From assembly GCA_003344405.1 (NCBI GenBank), contig NOWV01000143.1, positions 62,001-126,000 of the forward strand: a stretch of 64,000 nt of DNA, in the 5' to 3' direction. Shown piece after piece: positions 20,950 to 64,000 of this stretch. How positions within the stretch are numbered: position 1 is the first letter of the stretch; every line of letters begins with the position of its first letter. The notes beneath the pieces were generated by a model. It had not been told where the DNA came from. It was given only the letters and a program-made list of their open reading frames with translations, and made no database searches. Made by a program: the position numbers and the translations under genes. This DNA comes from Trichoplax sp. H2. Lineage: Eukaryota.

Positions 20950-23900
20950 ATGGAGAAGTTAACTGTCAGTGACTTAAATGTCCAAGATAAGCGTATCCTT
21001 ATTAGGTAATCTTGATCTCATGAAATAAGATGATGTCATGATAACTACAGTAGGTACGAGACAGCAAACTGATGATCGAGAAAAGTGTCTTGAGCTGCAG
21101 CAAGGCGTTTCAATGCTGCAACCAGTCGATGGACGAGGCTGGTTGCTGTTTTGCTGTCTTGGTCCACTAGTGCAATAGGAATCATTGATCCAGTTTAATT
21201 CATCGATTGGCTGGCAGTTTGCCATTTGAATCCCTTGTCTCCTGTCTTTTTTCCTTGCTTGAAGCTGAATTGAGTTGATTTTGAGCAAGCAACGTCGCTA
21301 CTATACAGTACGGTGAAAAAGCGACATCATGTTACTGTCGAAAGTAGGAGATGCGTATAAAGTTGCAATTCTCCATGGTTACCTTAAGTCAAGCTGAACT
21401 CAATCAAGTTGATAGCATAGAACGTAACGATAGCCCCCCAAAAGTCCATTATTTTAATGTAGAATGACTTGCCTCAATGGGTATTTCTCCGAAAGCCTTG
21501 CGAATCTTGATAGTATCTACCCAGAGGTAAATGGCTTGATACGCATATACAAGCTACTCAAGCCTAGACGGTACAACCTCAAGATAGCCGATAAAATACA
21601 TTCGACAAACTTGTTGAAACTCTAGTAGTGTTGTTATCAAGTTGTAGTAGGAAATACAACTAGATCAAATGCGAATAGATGCCATGGCAATTACGGTCAA
21701 TGACCTAAAATGAAAGCTAAAATACTACAGTAAAACTCATCCACTGTACAATCCTCATATGAGTAAAAGACTTTACATCAATACGTTTCAAGACACCTGA
21801 TGAAAATGTTGTAGTAGCGACAACAACATCAGTTTACAGTAATGTCCCCATCAATGGAAATGCTATAATAGCAATAGTACAAATAGGTTATGCCATCTTC
21901 CATGGGGTATTCAACTTATTTTTGATGACAAATTTCTGTTAGGGTGGATTTCAATGTTCCTTTGGATAAAGAACTGAACATTACCAACAATCAAAGGTAA
22001 GCTTTGCTCGATCATTTTCAATCGGTTAAGATAAATTGCCTATCTTTGGCTGATAACTGATTCCATAGTAACAAATTGACGATCATCATAACCGACGTCA
22101 AAGCTTAGTTAAAGTCATGTAGTCATTTTTAAACAACTTAAAATCATGATGAAAAGCTCTTCCTTGTCATGGATAATTTCGATCATCAATCATCATAACC
22201 GACATAAAAGCTGAGTTAAAGTCACGTAGTCATTTTTAAACAACTCAGAATTATGATGAAAAGCTCTTCCTTGTCATGGATAATTTCAATCAAGGCTCGT
22301 TTACAATATTACGACGGTAAATTGATGCTGCTCAGCTAATAGCCATAAATTTAGAAATTCCTTATTTCAGCCATGGCCAGCAATGGAAAGGATTTTATTG
22401 AGATAGTTCTTGTATCAAGTTGCAATAGTCCAACAGTTATGATGTGCACGGTGATACCACTCGTAGTTTGAATCAAGGATAATGTAAATGTAACTACTGT
22501 AAAAGTCATTCTGTTACCGAGCTTAAAGAACTTCTAGCCTTACGATTGTTATATTTTATCTCACAATTGCACGATCAAAGCATCTCTGACCTCTTAAAGT
22601 GCCATTCCAAATTGACAATGCACCTCCTGAAGAATTGACTCAAAATTAATTACGGAGTTTTACTTTATCATAGGATTGTTGCTGCCTTATCAACCATCAA
22701 GCATGTCTTAGATAATGGAGCCAAATCGGTAGTTTTAATGAGTCACTTAGGTCGCCCAAATGGTAATCGTAATCCAAAAATGTCCCTTGCTCCAGTAGCA
22801 GGTGAACTAGAGCGCCTTCTTGAGAGGTATGTCGAAATTGAAACAAGTGCAGTATGATTTTGATAACAACTTACTCAATACCCATCATTTGTTTTCATAC
22901 TATCAAATTGCTTCTTACTTCTCCTACGGGAGGACATAATAGACTATTTAAGGTTACTCAATTAACAATGCCACTTTGGTCTACTTGCATTATAGGAGTG
23001 TCATTTTCTTAGATGACTGTGTGGGTCAGTCTGTTGAAGAGGCATGCAGCAACCCTCGTCAAGGTTAAATTGAAATAATCTTATTAGTAATAGACATACG
23101 TAACACTTATCACATCTATGTAAGATAAGTTCTTACGATAGCATATCAATGTTGTAGGTAGTATCATTCTACTAGAAAATCTACGCTTTCATGTCGAAGA
23201 AGAAGGTAAAGGTGTCGATGGCAATGGCAAGAAGGTAAATTGTACTATTTGACCGTGTGGCGGTATCTGGAGAAAATTTTCATACATCAGTTTTAAGAGG
23301 ACAATATATACGCTCGTTTGAAAATCTAGATTACAGCCAGCAAAGATCAGGTTGCTGTCTTCAGAGAATCATTATCTAAATTAGGCGATATCTATATTAA
23401 CGACGCCTTTGGTACTGCTCATCGAGCTCATAGGTACTTCAATAATATTCATTATTCTGTAAAATTTGAATCCATGAAATCTTTCACTGTCAATGCCGTA
23501 ATATAAGTTCGTAAAATACTACATTCGACTACGTGACTTTAATAAGGGAGTAGATACAAATTCAGCTATATTTGCCGTTGATAATTATGATAACATTTGT
23601 TTCATGATTCCATCATTTGCAACAATATCATAACTGAGAAATTTGCTTACGTATAATTCGCTATTTATGCTGTAGCTCCATGGTCGGTGTTGCATTAGAA
23701 CAAAGAGCTGCTGGCTTCTTAATGGCCAAAGAATTAAACTACTTTGCTAAAGCGTTGGAATCGCCTAAGCAACCATTTCTAGCTATACTTGGCGGGTATG
23801 CAAAATAGCATCATTTCGTTACTGTCTATGTAATCAATGGATAATTCATCGAAACTGGAAAACATATTTACGATTATTATACAAATTCTACTTGAAAAAT

Positions 23901-25057
23901 TTATTTAGAGCCAAGGTGAAAGATAAGATTCAATTAATCGAAAATTTAATGGATAAAGTGAATGAGATGATTATTGGGGGCGGAATGTCCTTCACTTTCT
24001 CCAAAGTATTAGATAACATGCAGGTACACTACAATGAACAGATTAAGCATGGCTGTATTGGATGCTAGCAGGTGTATATGCTAACCTTACTAACATTGAT
24101 GTTGTCTTAATGTACAACAGATCGGAAATTCACTATTTGATGCAGAAGGATCAGAAATAGTTGAAAAATTAGTGGAAAAAGCCAAAAGCAAAGGAGTTAA
24201 ATTACATTTTCCTGTGGATTTCGTCACGGCAGATGCTTTCTCCCCAGATGCAGCAGTATATTTACCCAGATATTAGATAGATATAGATTAATTGATTAAT
24301 TAGTTCCTTTTTACAGCTTTCGCTACGTGTATTTACTATTGATAATCTCATTATTCTCATTTATTGCATGTCTCAGACCAGCTCAGCAACGGTAGAGTCC
24401 GGTATACCGGATGGATGGCAGGTAAATTATTTTTCTTCCATCAATTTGACCAATGCAGTAGGAATCTAATCATCTTTATTATTACTTTTGTGCTTTGAAG
24501 GGTTTAGATTGTGGTCCCCAGAGCATTGCTAAATTTCGAGAAGCCATTAGTCGTGCAAAGACTATAGTTTGGAATGGGTTTGTAAAAGCTTGAGCAATTG
24601 AGATCATTTTATGTGTAGTATAATCTACATAGATCTTTCTAAAAGATAGTAGTTGATTAATACTTTTTCGTAATCCGCGAGTAGTTATGATAATTAAGTT
24701 TTTTGTTACATCATTTTTAGACCTCCTGGTGTATTCGAGTTCGAAAAATTTTCTTGCGGAACGAAAGGGGTCATGGAGGCCGTCGTTGAAGCTACTAAGA
24801 ATGGTGCAATAACTATCATCGGTGGTGGAGATACAGCTACATGCGCTGCTAAATTCCGTACTGAAGACAAAGTTAGCCATGTTAGCACCGGTGGTGGTGC
24901 AAGTTTAGAACTGTTAGAAGGTATGATAGTTATTTTCCCCCAATGTATAAATACTTTACTGCCAGCTAAATTTCTTCTAACACATTGGTATTATTCCAAT
25001 TACTTGATGTTAGGAAAAAATCTACCGGGAGTTGCCGCTCTATCTAGCAAGTTATGA
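20950..25057 (+). CDS. PGK1: Phosphoglycerate kinase, about 13 exons
   Basis: Exon 1 (20950-21005) encodes [19 protein letters not shown]. Later exons encode [85 protein letters not shown] and [13 protein letters not shown]. Confidence 0.98.
22081..22293. repeat. Two tandem copies of a ~108-bp unit in PGK intron 2
   Basis: ATCATCATAACCGAC...GATGAAAAGCTCTTCCTTGTCATGGATAATTTC occurs twice with a few substitutions. Confidence 0.9.
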
Positions 25058-25740
25058 AAATAATATTATTTCTATTATCGTCTCTAATTTTATCTATTGA
25101 ACAATGTTGTAACCAAGCAATTGTTAAAATGTTAAAATTTCCTTCATAATTTAGTAGCATAATCTATTGCTTCATCTTATATACTGTAATTGCTAACGCT
25201 ACGGATCATTTCATGTATGAGATTGCAACAGCGAAACTTAGTACTTTTATCATGTATCGGTTTCATCGGGCTTCAAGCTTCATTTTACTGTGATTTGCCA
25301 AATAAAGTTAGCTGGATATAATAATAAATCTAGAAAGTTCTTAAAGAGAGTGGTGTCTCAATCTTTAACGATACCAATATGTCGATGGACAACCTTGTCA
25401 CCAATCAAGCCAAAGTGTTTGCTTACATTGCTTAGAAGTCTTTAAAATCAATATTAGGAAGTTATTCTTAAATACGAGTATTTTATTTATTTATAATGAA
25501 TGTCAATCCGATATAAAACTGCCTAAGATAATATGAAGAATATAAATTGGCTTACAATATGTACAAAAGCCAATTTGATATTGATGTAGGTTATCATTGA
25601 TCGCTAAGCACAATTTTATGGATATAGATTGCACTGAAATAGATTATTAATCATCACTAGGCGACAAAGACATCTTTGCAACGATTATCATCTCAGATAC
25701 AATACGATTGTGTGCTGCAAAGTCATAGTGTACAAAAATA

Positions 25741-28700
25741 TCATTCATCCACGTCCATTAGCATTAGCTCCTCATTATCATCATCTTCAGTCAATGATGT
25801 CCGTTGTTTAAGCTCTCCTAACGTTAATATATATTCTAACGTGGATCTATTACTATTGCACCTATATAAAAAATATAAGCAGCTTAATTACCTAAAAAAT
25901 GTCAGAACGGTGCTTACGTAAATTCATGTACGTAGAAGTATCACATCTTACAATTTTGATAGATCATTTTTCTTGTCCTTAATACTCTTTTGTAGTGAAA
26001 TCAAAATTGGCATAATATCTCCCGATTTCTGTTTCAGAGCAGTACCGTGATGCATTAACAATCGATTAGACCAGATGAGATAGAATTCTAGGTGACGTGA
26101 TGTTTCTAACTCGAACGCAACAAATTGAAGAATTTTTTCTACGTAGACCAATGGTAAGTACTGGCAAACCAAATCAACTAAGTAGGCAAATAATACAGTA
26201 TTTTTGCTTGTAACACTTTCCATCATAATCATACGATCTTATCAGACGTTATAACAGTACTTACTGCTGTCAGGCTTGATATTTTCAATAATTTCACGAA
26301 TGATAGCAACTTCATTTAATCTGAAAGCTAACATTACCGAAGCAAGATAATTGCCATCTTGCAAATTCTGTCGAATAGTTTCAGGGGTAACATCGATACT
26401 TAAATCATACGGGTCAAAGGTTAATGACGAATCCAGTGAATAAATCATCAGACCTTCGGTTGTTGCAGCAGCAAATGAATGGCCTAAATATAAATATAAA
26501 TTATGAGCATATTACGCATAAAAGGCAGATTTAGCTATTAAAAAATAGTCGTAGCGTCATACCAGATGGGCTAAACTGTAAACTTTTCACTCGTATTTCA
26601 GGTCTTACTTTTCTGGAACTCATATCACCTATATAAATCAAATTGCACCGAAATAGTACTTACATACTACTGATTACATGATAAAACATTATCAAGTATT
26701 AATACAACCTTTAGTGACACCAGGTAATGTAATGTCTTCCTTATCACTATCATCACTTAAATCTAGCTGATCTAATGGTCCTGCCTCTGTCATCAAACGG
26801 CTATTCAAAAATTCCTACAGTATACAAAGTAAGATTTTATTCCTCTTTCACATCTTCAACAACATTGTCATAGACGTGTTGATACAAATGACAAATAACC
26901 TGAATACCATCCAAAGATAGATTACGTGATACTTCGAAAGCTTTCAACAAAACCTAACAGATGGCCAGTTATGAACAAAATTTTGAAATTTTTCGTTGTA
27001 CTATATATACAAAATGTGTAGAAATCGGAGAATTTATGCGTACCTGTTGGTTAATATTATAAATACAAATACGCTTCGATCTACCACCTGCTAGGACATA
27101 TTCACCATCCGCAGAATAGCAAAGACAATTAAAGCATCTACATGCGTATATTTTCAAATAATAAATCATCGTTAAATCGTTGTTTTAAAATAGTATTCAA
27201 CTTTTATATTACTACTCAAATAATTGTCAAACTAACTTTCCTTCCGCTGACTTCTTAGCTGTTATAATATCCTGTGAACTTCTACCTCCACCTAAGTCCG
27301 CTTTGGCATCGATTGATCGGGTTTGCATTGCATCTATACTATTCCAAAATGATAATTCGCCATTATATGTCGCCACTGCTAATTCTTTACCACTGGGGCT
27401 GAAGATTGTAAAAGTTGCTAAAATAATAAATTATTGAAACATAGAATTTAGAAAAGAATATCACACGCTATCCCTATTAACATTATTATTATTACCGATC
27501 GAATTGAACTGTAAACATTCCACAGCAGTATTTTTCTCGTATATTTTCCATAATCGAACGGTCATATCCCAAGAAGAAGAGGCTAGTAATGTGACATCTT
27601 TACTAAATGTTAAGGACGAAACTGGGCCTTCGTGACCTTTTAAAATCTATTTCAAGGCAAAGCAATGCGAAATTTTTTTTACTTCAATAAATTTATCTTT
27701 TTATAAGAAGCAAAAGCTGATATTTGTGGTCACAATAATCATCTAAACAGCTGTTGCAATGAGCAAATCATACCTCCAATAGTTTACCAGTCTGCATTGA
27801 CCATACGTAAATATCAAAATGATTATGCGAGCCAGCAGCTATAATTTCATCACCATCTAAGCCAAGACATGAAAATTGAGTTGGAAATGGCGAAACAAAT
27901 GTTCTAAAGTTTCGGTAGCTGTACCATCAAAAAGGTTGTCAATTTTCAGTCTATCAAACAAATATTGCCGTGATGTAGTTTCCAACAGTTAATAAAAGTA
28001 TTGTCTTACCGTATCAAGTCGAATGCTCGTACCGTTCCATCTAAAGAAGCTGAAACAACTACTTGACCATTGGACTTGAATGCAAGTCCAGTTATGCTTG
28101 AATTATGTTCGCTAAAGGTAACAAAGCAGAATCCAGAAGATGTATTCCATAATTTGACCTGAAAATCATATGCAGATATTTCATATGGCAAGTCTATAAG
28201 GTATGCAGATAAAAATAAATATACATAACCATGATTTACCTTGCCATCATCTCCTCCTGTAGCAATTATCTGTCCATCCGGAGAATAAGATAATACATTC
28301 ATATCATAGTAATGGCCTTGTTGCTTTAAAATATATGTCTGACTTTGCCATTCCCATACTAATAGCTGTCCCATTCCAGCACAACCAAACCCCAACCATT
28401 CTCCAGTTTCATTAATAGCAACAGTAGTAATTTTCTGTTGAGATATGCTGTCAATTGGATGTAAAATTTATAACTTTACTGTATAATTTATTAATACTAG
28501 AACTTTTAATGATAATATAATAGCACCGTAAGAGTTACCTCAAGGAGTGAATAAGATTGAAGTCAGGGACTTCATAGAGAGTAAATACTCCGGTATTAAA
28601 GCCAACGATTAGCATATTGTCTCTCTTATGTAAAGTAGCACATGTTACTTCGGCACGATCTTGATTGAAGTAATGCCTATGTTGGATTATGATATGACAC

Positions 28701-55500: not shown

Positions 55501-58500
55501 CTTGTACACCCATTGTCTTTACTCATCTGTTTAAAACGTAATAAATAGATTTCTGTCTGTTTACACGATTTCGAATCTTTGGATAGTTATAACAAATTGA
55601 AATACGTCGATTACGATTACGGTAACTACAGCAACAACTCTTACACGAAAAAAATTTGGGACCATTTGAATGATTTAATTTCTCTTAATGAATTCTCAGC
55701 TATTAGGCTGAGCGGAATTATTGGTAATCTATTAGTAATTTAATCTAGCTATTAATGGTAGTTAAAGCCTTAACTCTACGTAGTTTTCTTGATGTGGAAC
55801 ACATATATAGCATAAACTACGGTATAGGCAAAGTCAACATACACATTTTTTATACCACCTTTTGTAAACTGCTTAACAAATCATAAATCGATAATACCAG
55901 TCTAAAATCAGGTCTTTACTAAGGTCATCGTTATTTCCATCACTATTATTATAAACTTTATATCTAGATAGTACTGCACCAGGATTGATTTAAGTTCTTA
56001 AAATTTGAAACATAGTAATAGAAGAATTTTGAAATCACATGAAATTTAAATAATTGTTCGCAATATTTCATTAATACCGTACCTATCCATAGCCTTATTG
56101 CTGGTAAGAAAACAATTTTGTGATCAAATAAAAAAAATTTTCTTGGTAAATTAGGATCACATTATGATAGGTCTGTTTTATAAACCATAGAGTTATAGCA
56201 TACAGTCTGTAGCAAAAATACGCTCGTCCGTAAATCATATAGTTTACCTGAAAGTCAAAATGAGAAGCTGGCGATTATTATAGCAATTATTGTTTTCCTA
56301 TTTTGTCGATTAGGTAACTTCATAAATGTAGCAGTTTATTTACGCGTAAAATGTACCAAAATATAGAAACTCCTATCCTTATGTTACCGCGCCATTTTTT
56401 CTTACACTTATAACTTAACTATTCACTATATCGCTTAAATATACAACTTCCCTTTTACTAATAATGTTGATATCTCCATCTAAGCGTATATACGCGGATA
56501 CTGTACTTTCCCGGTATTTATAATATTTATGATAGAGATTTTGTAAATGATTTTAATGATTTAGTAATACTGTACGTCTACTTTCGGTTAAAGTGGGTAT
56601 ATAATTGCGATATTTATCACGACATCATTAATTATTATTGTGTAAGAGAGTAGCCAAACTTACATAAACACTAAGAACATGATATGGAAAGGATCTTCGC
56701 ATTTTCGTCTATCCTTACTAATAGTACATACATTGCTGTGGACTTATATAGTAACATATATACTCCATTGGACCACAAAGTCTATTACATACATTTTTCT
56801 CTTCTGAATTCAAAACTAGAATGATATACTGATAAGGCTTTAGTTAATGTATGGTTTTCTGACTCAAACGGAATTTTCAGTAAGTCAGTTTACCTACTAG
56901 AACAGAGAATCTTACCGGAGTTTGATTATGTATTAAGGGCAAACAATGAGTGAAAATATGGCTGTTTCCGGGATGTAAAAGTAGATTTCATTGCATTCGT
57001 AAAGTGGGTACATTACACTCTATATAAATGCTCCTATTAATGGAATGAAAACATAGGCATTACCAGTATATGTAAATATAATTAGCAACAAAATAATTAA
57101 CTGAAAGCGCCGTAAATTAAAATAGATTATTGAAAATTGGGATACTTTCGTAAGGCAATCGGCTGATTTTGTATACTTAGATGTATGATGCGAGTTGATG
57201 AATGCAACTTACTTACTTGATATCAGCATACGAGTATATACCATGTAGATCTGTATTTATGCTCTTTATCTATGGAATAATCCGCTTGCCAGTATGTTGT
57301 TACATTGATCTAGTCATTGCAATTATATGGCTTTTATCTTAAGGCTCTCATATTTAAGCAGGTCAATATTTCAGCTTAATCTTCACTCTAGAGGTTATGT
57401 TTAAGTAATGTTATTAATATAGTTATTGATAATCAATTAAGTGTAACCAATGTTATACTAATGTAATCAATTAAAGTTGTTGATATTTATATTAGTAGTT
57501 CTCATTTTAATTAATATTTATCTTTTGCACATGTCGAAAATAGGGAAAAACAAAATTTTTATGCTTTGTTACAATTACTTTGCTAACTTATGCATATTAC
57601 ATTAACAATAATCTCACCGGTATACCACATTAACTATTATTTCATTTCTAAATAGTCACAAACGTTACGTCAACAGCAGCAGCAAGCGTTAATGCCCAGA
57701 AAAAGATCAGATTTATTAGCTCCTACAAGTGGTCAAGCATATCATCACGATGGTCCAATTAATGAAGTAGTTTTACGAAATATGGGCAGTACACCAAACT
57801 ATGATTTGCCACCGCAAAGGATGCCTGGTAAAGATCAAGCTACAGATTCTCTTAAATTGAAATATAAATCCATGTTAATGTCTGGTAATAGAAGAAAGAA
57901 ACAATCAGGTGCAAGCCTTGATTTAAATAGCGTACAGGCTAATTCAGTCAACAATAGGCCATCGGTATATAAAAAAGGATTTCATAGTCCAGCTAATTCA
58001 GATATAGCTGTAACAAACTCACCGATTGCTAACTTAGCCGATTCAAAGGTTAAAAGCATGTCAGATCCAGCGGTAGGTGCTGCTTGTACGCCACATGATG
58101 ATGAATCAACGTTGCCGATAACGAGTAGCGTAGGCATGAATATCAATGATCCAACATCGGGTAAGGCCGTTAACGTATCATTAACACCATCTACATCGAA
58201 CACCATAAGTTTAGATGGGATCGTACCAATGCAAGGTAGACATGTACAATCAGTTATTGGCCACCCCAATAAATGGCAAACTTCAACCAATGATGCATCT
58301 GCTGCTACTGTTTCTGCGACATTTATGAGTCCATTTGGTGATATGAATGAGACGAATAATGCGCATACCATACCAGCTAATTATCATCCTCGACCAAATG
58401 GAACAGATAGCAATTTACAACAAGCTAATCACCCAGTGCCATCATTGCAGGTCCAAGTATCGCAACAACAGTCACAACAACAGCAACAACAACAGCAGCA

Positions 58501-59980
58501 ACAAGTACATCAACCTCATCTTCAGGCTGCACATCCGGAAGCATTTATACCTAACCAGGAAATAGATCACTTTCATTCTTCCATACCTAAGCGTCCAGGA
58601 CAAGGTAATGAGCAACAACCGTTATCTTTGAAAGAAATTAGATACAACAGCAGTCAAATTACATATCGGCAACAAATTAATCGGAAACAACAGCATAGAA
58701 AGCATCAAGAACAATGGATGAAAAGGCCGCCAAGGCCACCGATCATACCTAAGGCAAAAGGTAAAGAACAAATCAGACGAGGCCCTATTCCTCATGCGTC
58801 AAGAATCATTATTCAGCAGCAACTTCAACAAAATTCAATGCAAAAGCAACAGCAAATTCGAAACAATTCTCAATTTCAGCAACATGCAGTTTCGTCTGTG
58901 CCATTATTGCAACAAAATTTGAATCACAATAATCCATCAAATCTACAACAAAATCAAAACAATTTTGTTGCAGGGCATTCTATGTTACGCACACAAGCCA
59001 ATAATCAGACAAATTTAGGCAATTATCAGGATCATTCAAATCTACCTGAACATTACATGATCAACACTGACCCAAATAGAATTAATGACACTTTTACCAA
59101 TGCATCACAAGGACCACAATCAACACAAAATCCGCTACCTGCTACATCTCAAACTATGCAGCAATATCAACACGCTCCAATTACGCCTCAAAATCCTTCA
59201 ACTTTAAATGTTGTACCTGAATACGATATCCATGAGAATCCAGTAGGAAATTGGACTACAAATAATAGCAACAAGATTAATTCTGGTCAGGATGGCCTTA
59301 TTGTTACTACACCAAATAGTTATGCACCAAATATACATTTCTCTCAGCAGGCACAAATTAGAGGAATTAATTTAACAACGTATGCTAGAGAGCAGGGTCA
59401 ATCTCGTGCATCGCAAGATTTTGGTAATTTTGTTCGATTACAACAACCGCAAACGTTTCCTCAGCAGCAGCATCACCAACCACAACCGCAACAGCAACAG
59501 CAACAGCAACATTTCGCTCATCAGCAAACTCCATCTAATATTCGTCAAACCTTAGCCACCATGCAACAACAACAGCAGCAGCATCAACAACATCCTAAGC
59601 AACAGCAGCAACATCAGCCAATAATGCAAGAGCCCTCAAATATTGATCAACAGCAGCAATATTATGCTAACTTTAATGCCGAAAATGATTTCAATCAGCA
59701 TTCATTCATGCCTAACTCCGCTGAATTCAATGATCCTAATAAGAGAAATTCGTTTGAACAGAATATTCATTTACCTACGGAGAATCAACGGAGCATCATT
59801 GATCGAGTAATCAATCCTGAAGAGAATTTTAACCATAATAACAATGATAATCTCACCAACATTTACAACAGCATCAATCTAGGAAATTATAGCAATATGG
59901 ATAATCCATTTAATATGCTAAAAGATGGTAATAACGTTACAGATGTTAATGAATTTATTTCATACTTGCATGATACTTGA
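49503..59980 (+). CDS. Uncharacterised Q/N/P-rich low-complexity protein, ~861 aa; exons 49503-49569, 51256-51449, 57656-59980
   Basis: The 2.3-kb open exon with polyQ tracts has an in-frame acceptor at 57655. Two upstream exons with strong donors (C|GTAAGT, AAG|GTAAGC) join in phase. The large exon is solid; the upstream exons are inferred. Confidence 0.75.
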
Positions 59981-63421: not shown

Positions 63422-64000
63422 CGTTATACAGTCCATGGGATTGTGAAGAATTGATCAAAATGTTGTCATACGGGTCCAGTTGAGACTGGTTGAGGCTAGT
63501 TGAGACTGGTTGAGACTAGTTGAGACGGATGTGTTGTCTTCCCTCTAGGTTGTATCTGGCTCTAGTATCTGCCTTTGGATAGATCGTTATACAGTCCATG
63601 GGATTGTAAAGAATTGATCGAAATGTTATCATACGGGTCCAGATGAGGCTCGTTAAGACTAGTTGAGACTGGTTGAAACTAGTTGAGACGGATGTGTTGT
63701 CTTCCCTCTAGGTATATCTGCCTTTGGATAGATCGTTATACAGTCCATGGGATTGTAAAGAATTGATCAAAATGTTGTCATACGGGTCCAGTTGAGACTG
63801 GTTGAGGCTAGTTGAGNNNNNNNNNNNNNNNNNNNNACCTACAAACAACTAAGGTATGTTAGCCAAGAATTAAATCGAGACCACACGATCATGCTATTCC
63901 AACTGATTTTCAAATTTCCCTTCATGTCTGGCGTTATACAGTCCAAGGGATTGTGAAGAATTGATCAAAATGTTGTCATACGGGTCCAGTTGAGGCTGGT
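63422..64000. repeat. Minisatellite with a ~150-163-bp unit and internal 10-bp GTTGAGACT(A/G) subrepeats, interrupted by an N gap (63817-63836)
   Basis: Units begin CGTTATACAGTCCA at 63422, 63585, 63734 and 63932. Confidence 0.95.

Follow-up and report, generated by a model that had tools for sequence, protein, structure and literature searches.

Several lineages place phosphoglycerate kinase (PGK), an ATP-forming glycolytic enzyme, in peroxisomes or glycosomes by means of a C-terminal type 1 signal for peroxisomal targeting (PTS1). Here we examine the PGK gene of the placozoan Trichoplax sp. H2, which lies in a 64,000-nucleotide stretch of genomic DNA (assembly GCA_003344405.1, contig NOWV01000143.1, positions 62,001 to 126,000 of the forward strand; hereafter the window, to which all coordinates refer) and whose product ends in Ser-Lys-Leu (SKL), the classical PTS1 terminus (PMC545800). 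This tail is expressed, is confined, in the sampled animals, to two Trichoplax lineages that are nearly identical, and follows the conserved end of the enzyme directly; on balance we favour a lineage-specific, largely masked signal on a cytosolic PGK.

In Trypanosoma brucei, the PTS1-like signal of the glycosomal isoenzyme PGKC ends a 20-residue extension, and the cytosolic isoenzyme PGKB is separately encoded; the glycosomal PGK of Diplonema papillatum ends in -SKL and Perkinsela PGK in -GKL (PMC7729029). Fungal PGKs acquire a PTS1 by stop-codon read-through in Ustilago maydis and by alternative splicing in Aspergillus nidulans (Freitag et al. 2012, as described in PMC3798809), so that the signal is encoded beyond the usual stop or by an alternatively used exon and is present only on a minor, C-terminally extended isoform, with a proposed role in peroxisomal redox and ATP balance. 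Small metabolites cross the peroxisomal membrane, and adenine nucleotides and NAD(H) do not do so freely. Among animal cytosolic enzymes of carbon and redox metabolism, mammalian LDHB and MDH1 are partly sent to peroxisomes through a C-terminal PTS1 (PMC4359377, PMC4207609).

A PTS1 comprises about 12 residues: the terminal tripeptide, about four residues touching the PEX5 cavity at its mouth, and about five that are solvent-accessible or easily unfolded (Neuberger et al. 2004, PMC545800). DHFR-SKL, whose C-terminus lies in a buried beta-sheet, is not imported and slightly longer tails are, and PEX5-competent termini also occur on secreted, mitochondrial and bacterial proteins (PMC545800). The terminal dodecamer of U. 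maydis FBA imports GFP completely, whereas the fluorescence of full-length GFP-FBA is cytoplasmic; a weak or partly masked PTS1 is also a recognized path to dual targeting (Ast et al. 2013). DHFR-SKL, lysozymes, bacterial enzymes and U. maydis FBA form a set in which a PTS1-competent peptide on a structured end gives absent or slight import.

Trichoplax PGK shares with PGKC and with the Diplonema and Perkinsela enzymes an ordinary PGK with a hard-coded C-terminal PTS1. It differs from PGKC in having a single gene with a single transcript form and in lacking an extension, and whereas localization has been shown for PGKC, the Trichoplax enzyme is known from its sequence. Like the fungal cryptic forms, it indicates that an opisthokont PGK can gain a PTS1, but SKL is present on every Trichoplax PGK molecule, directly on the native tail; likewise, the LDHB and MDH1 signals are read-through extensions whereas this one is hard-coded. 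In comparison with the silent-PTS1 proteins, the case for masking of the Trichoplax tail is built on a model and on crystal structures of homologues. The closest parallel in tail architecture is the PGK of Capsaspora owczarzaki, which has an equal tail length and a canonical tripeptide directly after ...ALS but belongs to another lineage (a unicellular animal relative), is 71% identical overall and is equally uncharacterized.

The PTS1-bearing extension typical of dedicated peroxisomal or glycosomal PGK isoforms is absent from Trichoplax PGK, and a separate cytosolic form arising from a paralogue, splicing or read-through was not found in three protein searches or in the RNA contigs of four runs, which drop rare variants. 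With neither an extension nor a second form, the enzyme falls outside the dedicated peroxisomal isoforms. From its sequence, Trichoplax PGK is a possible animal addition to the known PGKs with a PTS1, its PTS1 being predicted and the sequences already public. Within the full-text literature searched, which did not extend to subscription papers or supplements, we found no mention of a PTS1 on Trichoplax or Capsaspora PGK and no localization data for Trichoplax PGK.

An expressed PGK gene encodes a C-terminal SKL

Stop-to-stop open reading frames and motif scans of the window delineated a complete PGK gene of 13 exons on the plus strand (20950-25057). Joined at the junctions seen in RNA, the exons give 1248 nt encoding 415 residues without internal stops. 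The spliced product matches the Trichoplax sp. H2 protein P0012 (RDD39229.1, named phosphoglycerate kinase by NCBI) at 415/415 residues and differs from Trichoplax adhaerens TRIADDRAFT_63295 (P0013) only by G132S. The parts of the gene, all on the plus strand, are as follows.

20950..21005, plus strand: PGK exon 1, with the ATG at 20950; joint to exon 2 in RNA contigs of 3/4 runs
21943..21996, plus strand: PGK exon 2, from RNA contig joints and the spliced product
22674..22826, plus strand: PGK exon 3, from RNA contig joints and the spliced product
22996..23063, plus strand: PGK exon 4, from RNA contig joints and the spliced product
23158..23234, plus strand: PGK exon 5, from RNA contig joints and the spliced product
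23330..23433, plus strand: PGK exon 6, from RNA contig joints and the spliced product
23676..23795, plus strand: PGK exon 7, from RNA contig joints and the spliced product
23909..24023, plus strand: PGK exon 8, from RNA contig joints and the spliced product
24121..24255, plus strand: PGK exon 9, from RNA contig joints and the spliced product
24377..24421, plus strand: PGK exon 10, from RNA contig joints and the spliced product
24501..24577, plus strand: PGK exon 11, from RNA contig joints and the spliced product
24721..24920, plus strand: PGK exon 12, ending in phase 1; from the sequence, RNA contig joints and the spliced product
24921..25013, plus strand: last PGK intron, 93 nt, GT..AG, in frame without stops; joint in 4/4 runs
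25014..25057, plus strand: PGK exon 13, coding part and TGA; from the sequence, RNA contig joints and the spliced product
25046..25054, plus strand: Ser-Lys-Leu codons, the canonical PTS1 tripeptide at the C-terminus; from the sequence, the tail survey and the spliced product
25058..25328, plus strand: PGK 3' untranslated region; it contains AATAAA (25301-25306), and poly(A) is added near 25328

The last coding segment (25014-25057, plus strand) reads GA AAA AAT CTA CCG GGA GTT GCC GCT CTA TCT AGC AAG TTA TGA, its first codon being completed by the single G at 24920 with which the penultimate exon closes in phase 1. The SKL codons AGC AAG TTA occupy 25046-25054 and are followed by the TGA stop at 25055-25057.

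Transcript evidence came from Logan contigs, assemblies that lose rare variants, of four runs from three studies aligned to the gene (X12 and X15 recorded as RNA from one organism, X7 and X8 presumed to be RNA from another); 20 run rows matched part of the gene. All 12 introns are GT..AG and were seen as joints in the contigs, ten of them in every run, the joints of intron 1 and intron 9 each being present in 3/4 (missing from X7 and X12, respectively). The last joint, 24920|25014, was found in all four runs and all three studies at a contig word depth of 179-213, and the contigs that carry it cross the stop codon, reaching 25176 (X8), 25311 (X15), 25321 (X7) and 25328 (X12). Behind 25328 the X12 contig ends loosely in 14 A and then TCAAA, with AATAAA 22 nt upstream of 25328, placing the end of the PGK mRNA about 271 nt past the stop. 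Over 24260-25400, none of the runs had a listed base difference. From 25012 onwards, the X15 and X8 contig pieces had no mismatched letters and the X12 and X7 pieces two each, at positions absent from the table of differences away from contig ends. No alternative last exon was present in the contigs of the four runs, within the limit that such contigs drop rare variants.

These data bear directly on whether SKL is an artefact of a wrong exon, an assembly error or a mis-annotated 3' end. The joint in every run, contigs that extend to poly(A), the mismatch-free X15 and X8 pieces and the same C-terminus in two independent public annotations leave that explanation a negligible probability. The first-pass annotation of the window, which had read the last exon as ending in SKL from the letters alone and proposed checking the 3' end in RNA-seq, is borne out by the sequence, by identity to RDD39229.1 and by contigs that run past the stop to the poly(A) site.

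Two further ways of altering the C-terminus were considered and rejected. Retention of the last intron, which is open and would add 31 residues before the final exon, occurred in no listed contig, and an open stretch of 31 codons is estimated to arise by chance about 1 time in 10 at such AT-rich composition. Read-through of the stop codon would gain nothing, as the frame past TGA is AAA TAA.

Some contigs recorded unspliced or variant RNA elsewhere in the gene. The main X7 contig (1674 nt) begins at 21725 and runs unspliced into exon 2 (21725-21994) instead of showing the exon 1 joint; upstream of exon 2 there is no in-frame ATG after a stop at 21926-21928, and the likely source of this start is pre-mRNA or an alternative 5' end that leaves the coding sequence unaffected. 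Separate low-depth RNA contigs with many small indels cover 20996-21580, in intron 1, in all four runs, and a backward joint of 79 within it (21382 to 21304) points to a tandem duplication that is polymorphic. The same intron is overlapped by a minus-strand open frame of 107 aa (20974-21297). One X15 contig is unspliced over intron 9 (24226-24406; depth 38 versus 179 for the spliced form), which looks like low-level intron retention or pre-mRNA.

The encoded protein has the hallmarks of PGK. Pfam PF00162 (PF00162.25) is precomputed on both Trichoplax proteins, and phmmer against human PGK1 chains gave 619 bits over residues 2-413. In a 63-sequence alignment, R37, H61, R64, R120, R168, K217 and the GGGD and STGGGA stretches are invariant columns, some of which we take to be substrate-binding. 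There is no N-terminal presequence, residue 2 aligning with residue 4 of human PGK1 (phmmer). Among the matches of the three protein searches there is one PGK per Trichoplax species. The window gene is thus an ordinary, apparently single-copy, expressed glycolytic PGK of Trichoplax.

Canonical PTS1 tails are rare among PGKs

Canonical PTS1 tripeptides follow the consensus [SAC][KRH][LM]. We collected 278 distinct PGKs, mostly animal, from the three protein searches (made with exon 12 against longer proteins, with the full-length protein and with residues 372-415), of which 261 had the conserved LELLEGxxLPGxxAL motif in their last 40 residues and formed the tail comparison set. Three of the 278 end in the consensus: the two Trichoplax proteins (SKL) and the Capsaspora protein (AKL), the latter being the only case in the 276 PGKs retrieved outside Trichoplax. 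No other animal PGK retrieved in this set, including those of sponges and cnidarians, had a canonical PTS1 tail, nor did any choanoflagellate PGK. The commonest endings in the first 207 proteins were SDA (56), TDA (13), SEA (11) and SNK (9), and human PGK1 chains end in ...DALSN plus one residue. Four residues follow the conserved ...AL in Trichoplax PGK, a length shared by 53/261 PGKs; 198/261 have three. Among early-branching relatives (sponges, cnidarians and choanoflagellates) and some further proteins the endings varied, as follows.

Sycon: SSA
Corticium: SDA
Nematostella: SSL
Dendronephthya and Xenia: SEA
Oculina: SDA
Microstomoeca (choanoflagellate): NEA
Choanoeca (choanoflagellate): NDA
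Three eukprot proteins (P0253, P0259, P0269): SSKQ or SSK

Placing the three eukprot proteins with an identity matrix gave no placement, all pairs being 65-72% identical.

Given how often each residue occurs at the last three positions of the 261 tails, 0.23 canonical tripeptides would be expected; three were seen, in two independent lineages. PGK tails vary freely (SDA, TDA, SEA, SNK, SSL, SSA), and a few substitutions therefore suffice to reach SKL from neighbouring states. The best full-length match beyond the two Trichoplax proteins is 73% identical; Trichoplax, and not Hoilungia, Cladtertia or Polyplacotoma, represents the placozoans in the conservation comparison. Because the two Trichoplax proteins are 1 aa apart, no selective retention can be read from their common SKL.

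Several PGKs end in -SSL (Nematostella P0124, Mactra P0047, Habropoda P0109 and Anthophora P0258; less certainly Frieseomelitta P0234, and also P0236). This ending is one insertion from SSKL, and SSL is the glycosomal signal of T. brucei PGKC. The searches also returned TPI-PGK fusions (P0183 and P0201, JGI, 665-666 aa; PF00121 plus PF00162) whose PGK part is about 70% identical to Trichoplax PGK, one of the clusters having 100 members.

In a scan of 1.84 billion representative proteins, 4/150 PGK representatives end in a canonical tripeptide, a mixed background that is no evidence in favour of Trichoplax. One is a Bacteroidales PGK ending in SRL, which is necessarily meaningless as a PTS1. 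Another, P0308, represents a plant cluster annotated as chloroplast PGK (Gossypium and other plants) and ends in …ALDEAVPVAVAKL. The remaining two, the metagenome or metatranscriptome proteins P0302 and P0303 (JGI), end in …SLSLKSPRSKL and …ALSNQPGTGAGSGNLTSKL, with 7 to 15 extra residues between the conserved PGK tail and SKL, and judging from these tails they are likely to be true peroxisomal or glycosomal PGKs of protists.

SKL directly follows a C-terminus predicted to be structured

By phmmer, Trichoplax PGK residue 413 aligned to residue 415 of the 416 in human PGK1, the Trichoplax tail being one residue longer; no linker separates the conserved tail from SKL. An AlphaFold2 (AF2) model built on the 63-sequence alignment had a mean predicted local distance difference test score (pLDDT) of 94, with means of 93 for residues 401-410 and 83 for the last five. 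DSSP assigned the model a helix at 394-400, coil, a short helix at 406-409 and coil at 410-412; S413 takes part in a beta-bridge (the E state is also assigned to residues 3 and 5), and K414 and L415 are coil.

Residues 1-414 of the model superpose on residues 2-416 (the last resolved, 416/417) of numerous PGK crystal structures from human and pig, with Z of 56-59, root-mean-square deviation (rmsd) of 0.8-1.7 A and 401-413 aligned positions. VIA-align against human PGK1 (5m3u) gave Z 58.7 and rmsd 1.0 A over 413 aligned residues, in the two-domain PGK fold, in which the C-terminal segment comes back to the N-domain. Superposition on resolved crystal C-termini indicates that the equivalents of S413 and K414 are ordered, so that in the model only L415 projects beyond them.

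A probable masked signal or possible partial import

The evidence leans against efficient peroxisomal targeting of Trichoplax PGK, because the model places S413 in a beta-bridge with no linker before SKL, the homologous C-termini are ordered, and among animals the motif occurs only in the two Trichoplax proteins. We therefore favour, with somewhat better than even confidence, a lineage-specific, largely masked SKL on a cytosolic PGK. The short, fast-evolving C-terminal tail would have drifted to -SSKL in the Trichoplax lineage, setting SKL, without a flexible linker, directly on the C-terminal segment that folds back against the N-domain. Masked in this way, the tripeptide would be poorly seen by PEX5, so that PGK would stay essentially cytosolic, with any peroxisomal import at trace level and without a dedicated role. 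Masking is favoured by analogy, as known or likely peroxisomal PGKs have linkers of 7-20 residues (20 in PGKC, 7-15 in P0302 and P0303) and DHFR-SKL and U. maydis FBA illustrate how structured ends may hide a PTS1. Drift is similarly suggested by PTS1-like ends that arise where they are nonfunctional, as in the Bacteroidales PGK, or de novo, 3/5 tested human single-nucleotide variants having created a working PTS1 in cytosolic proteins (Chong et al. 2019).

Several observations weigh against a masked, silent tail. The nine residues before the tripeptide, NLPGVAALS, contain no acidic residue, unlike the common ...ALSDA tails, and SKL is the strongest PTS1 tripeptide. The one extra residue, with the drop in pLDDT at the terminus of the model, could permit the tail to fray. 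Capsaspora PGK (P0139, XP_004364164.1; tail ...LPGVTALSAKL) has independently placed AKL at the position of the Trichoplax SKL, and canonical tails exceed the tail-composition null, an excess that is only modest and not compelling. Partial import readily escapes notice and may be frequent (Ast et al. 2013), and peroxisomal PGK is recurrent in fungi, kinetoplastids and diplonemids (PMC7729029, PMC3798809).

These points feed the principal alternative, a functional but inefficient PTS1 giving dual localization with a physiological role, in which most PGK is cytosolic and a minority is imported; we consider it plausible, at clearly less than even probability. PEX5 would take molecules whose last residues are frayed or whose C-terminal segment is undocked. 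Inside the peroxisome, PGK would interconvert 1,3-bisphosphoglycerate and ADP with 3-phosphoglycerate and ATP, linking permeant metabolites to an impermeant ATP/ADP pool. Imported enzyme could thereby buffer peroxisomal ATP/ADP and, together with GAPDH, NAD+/NADH, as proposed for fungi. The canonical, expressed SKL is consistent with such import, as are Capsaspora AKL with the modest excess noted above, the acceptance of weak or part-masked PTS1s as a dual-targeting route, and peroxisomal PGK in both fungi (read-through, splicing) and Euglenozoa (hard-coded, with -SKL in D. papillatum). T. adhaerens is also listed in an in silico table with PEX7, a PTS2 thiolase and a PTS1 acyl-CoA oxidase (Gonzalez et al. 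2011, PMC3178647), from which a PTS1 import system is presumably present in Trichoplax. Against dual localization stand the limitation of SKL, in the PGKs sampled, to two near-identical lineages, the missing linker and ordered crystal C-termini, the masking precedents of DHFR-SKL and FBA, and the lack of Trichoplax PGK localization data in the literature searched. Glycosome-like targeting of all or most PGK, by contrast, we regard as very improbable: the strength of the tripeptide speaks for it, but with one PGK per species and one C-terminal form in the RNA contigs, full import would deprive cytosolic glycolysis of PGK, and the tail has no linker.

The first-pass annotation had contrasted SKL with non-PTS1 tails in other animals and cited peroxisomal PGKs of fungi and kinetoplastids as precedents. 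The contrast holds, the 3/278 canonical tails including only Trichoplax among the animals sampled, and the precedents are confirmed in PMC3798809 and PMC7729029. In its proposed comparison of C-termini, SKL is common to the two near-identical Trichoplax proteins, and the sponge, cnidarian and choanoflagellate PGKs retrieved are without a canonical PTS1. Its suggestion that limited accessibility of SKL could give dual localization is the most that the data allow, and the peroxisomal glycolytic or ATP/redox shuttle that it envisaged for this animal is speculation.

A broader proposal, which we put forward tentatively and think rather unlikely, is that placozoans, and independently the filasterean Capsaspora, import a fraction of their sole PGK by means of a PTS1 hard-coded on the native tail, the ratio between cytosol and peroxisome being set by partial masking in the fold. 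If true, this would be the first animal in which an ATP-generating step of glycolysis is peroxisomal and a third opisthokont route to peroxisomal PGK, beside fungal read-through and alternative splicing, and would support a peroxisomal GAPDH/PGK-type ATP/redox shunt as ancient and repeatedly re-invented. Should the Trichoplax SKL work, Trichoplax would be the first animal shown to bring a glycolytic enzyme that forms ATP into peroxisomes with neither read-through nor alternative splicing; the amount imported would be set by fold masking rather than RNA-level recoding, with a bearing on the compartmentalization of glycolysis in glycosomes and on peroxisomal ATP and NAD(H) balance. If instead SKL is silent, as in the masked reading that we favour, Trichoplax PGK, an abundant cytosolic marker enzyme, would be a clean case from nature of a PTS1 that stays hidden and a caution for motif-based predictions of peroxisome proteomes in non-model animals.

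Other features of the window

A WD40-repeat gene lies tail-to-tail with PGK on the minus strand (25948-28467); its exon at 28006-28464 has a WD40 match of 1.8e-18, with WDR3-type beta-propeller models below the curated cut-off. On the plus strand, an exon at 10820-11191 matches ATP-synt_C (PF00137, 9.8e-13) and belongs to a gene for a V-ATPase/ATP synthase proteolipid subunit. An uninterrupted 774-aa open frame on the plus strand (57656-59980) has no Pfam match, and its atlas look-alikes (BCL9, mastermind and Mediator-like clusters) all score below 0.8, pointing to a lineage-specific protein that is long and disordered. An assembly gap is marked by 20 N at 63817-63836.

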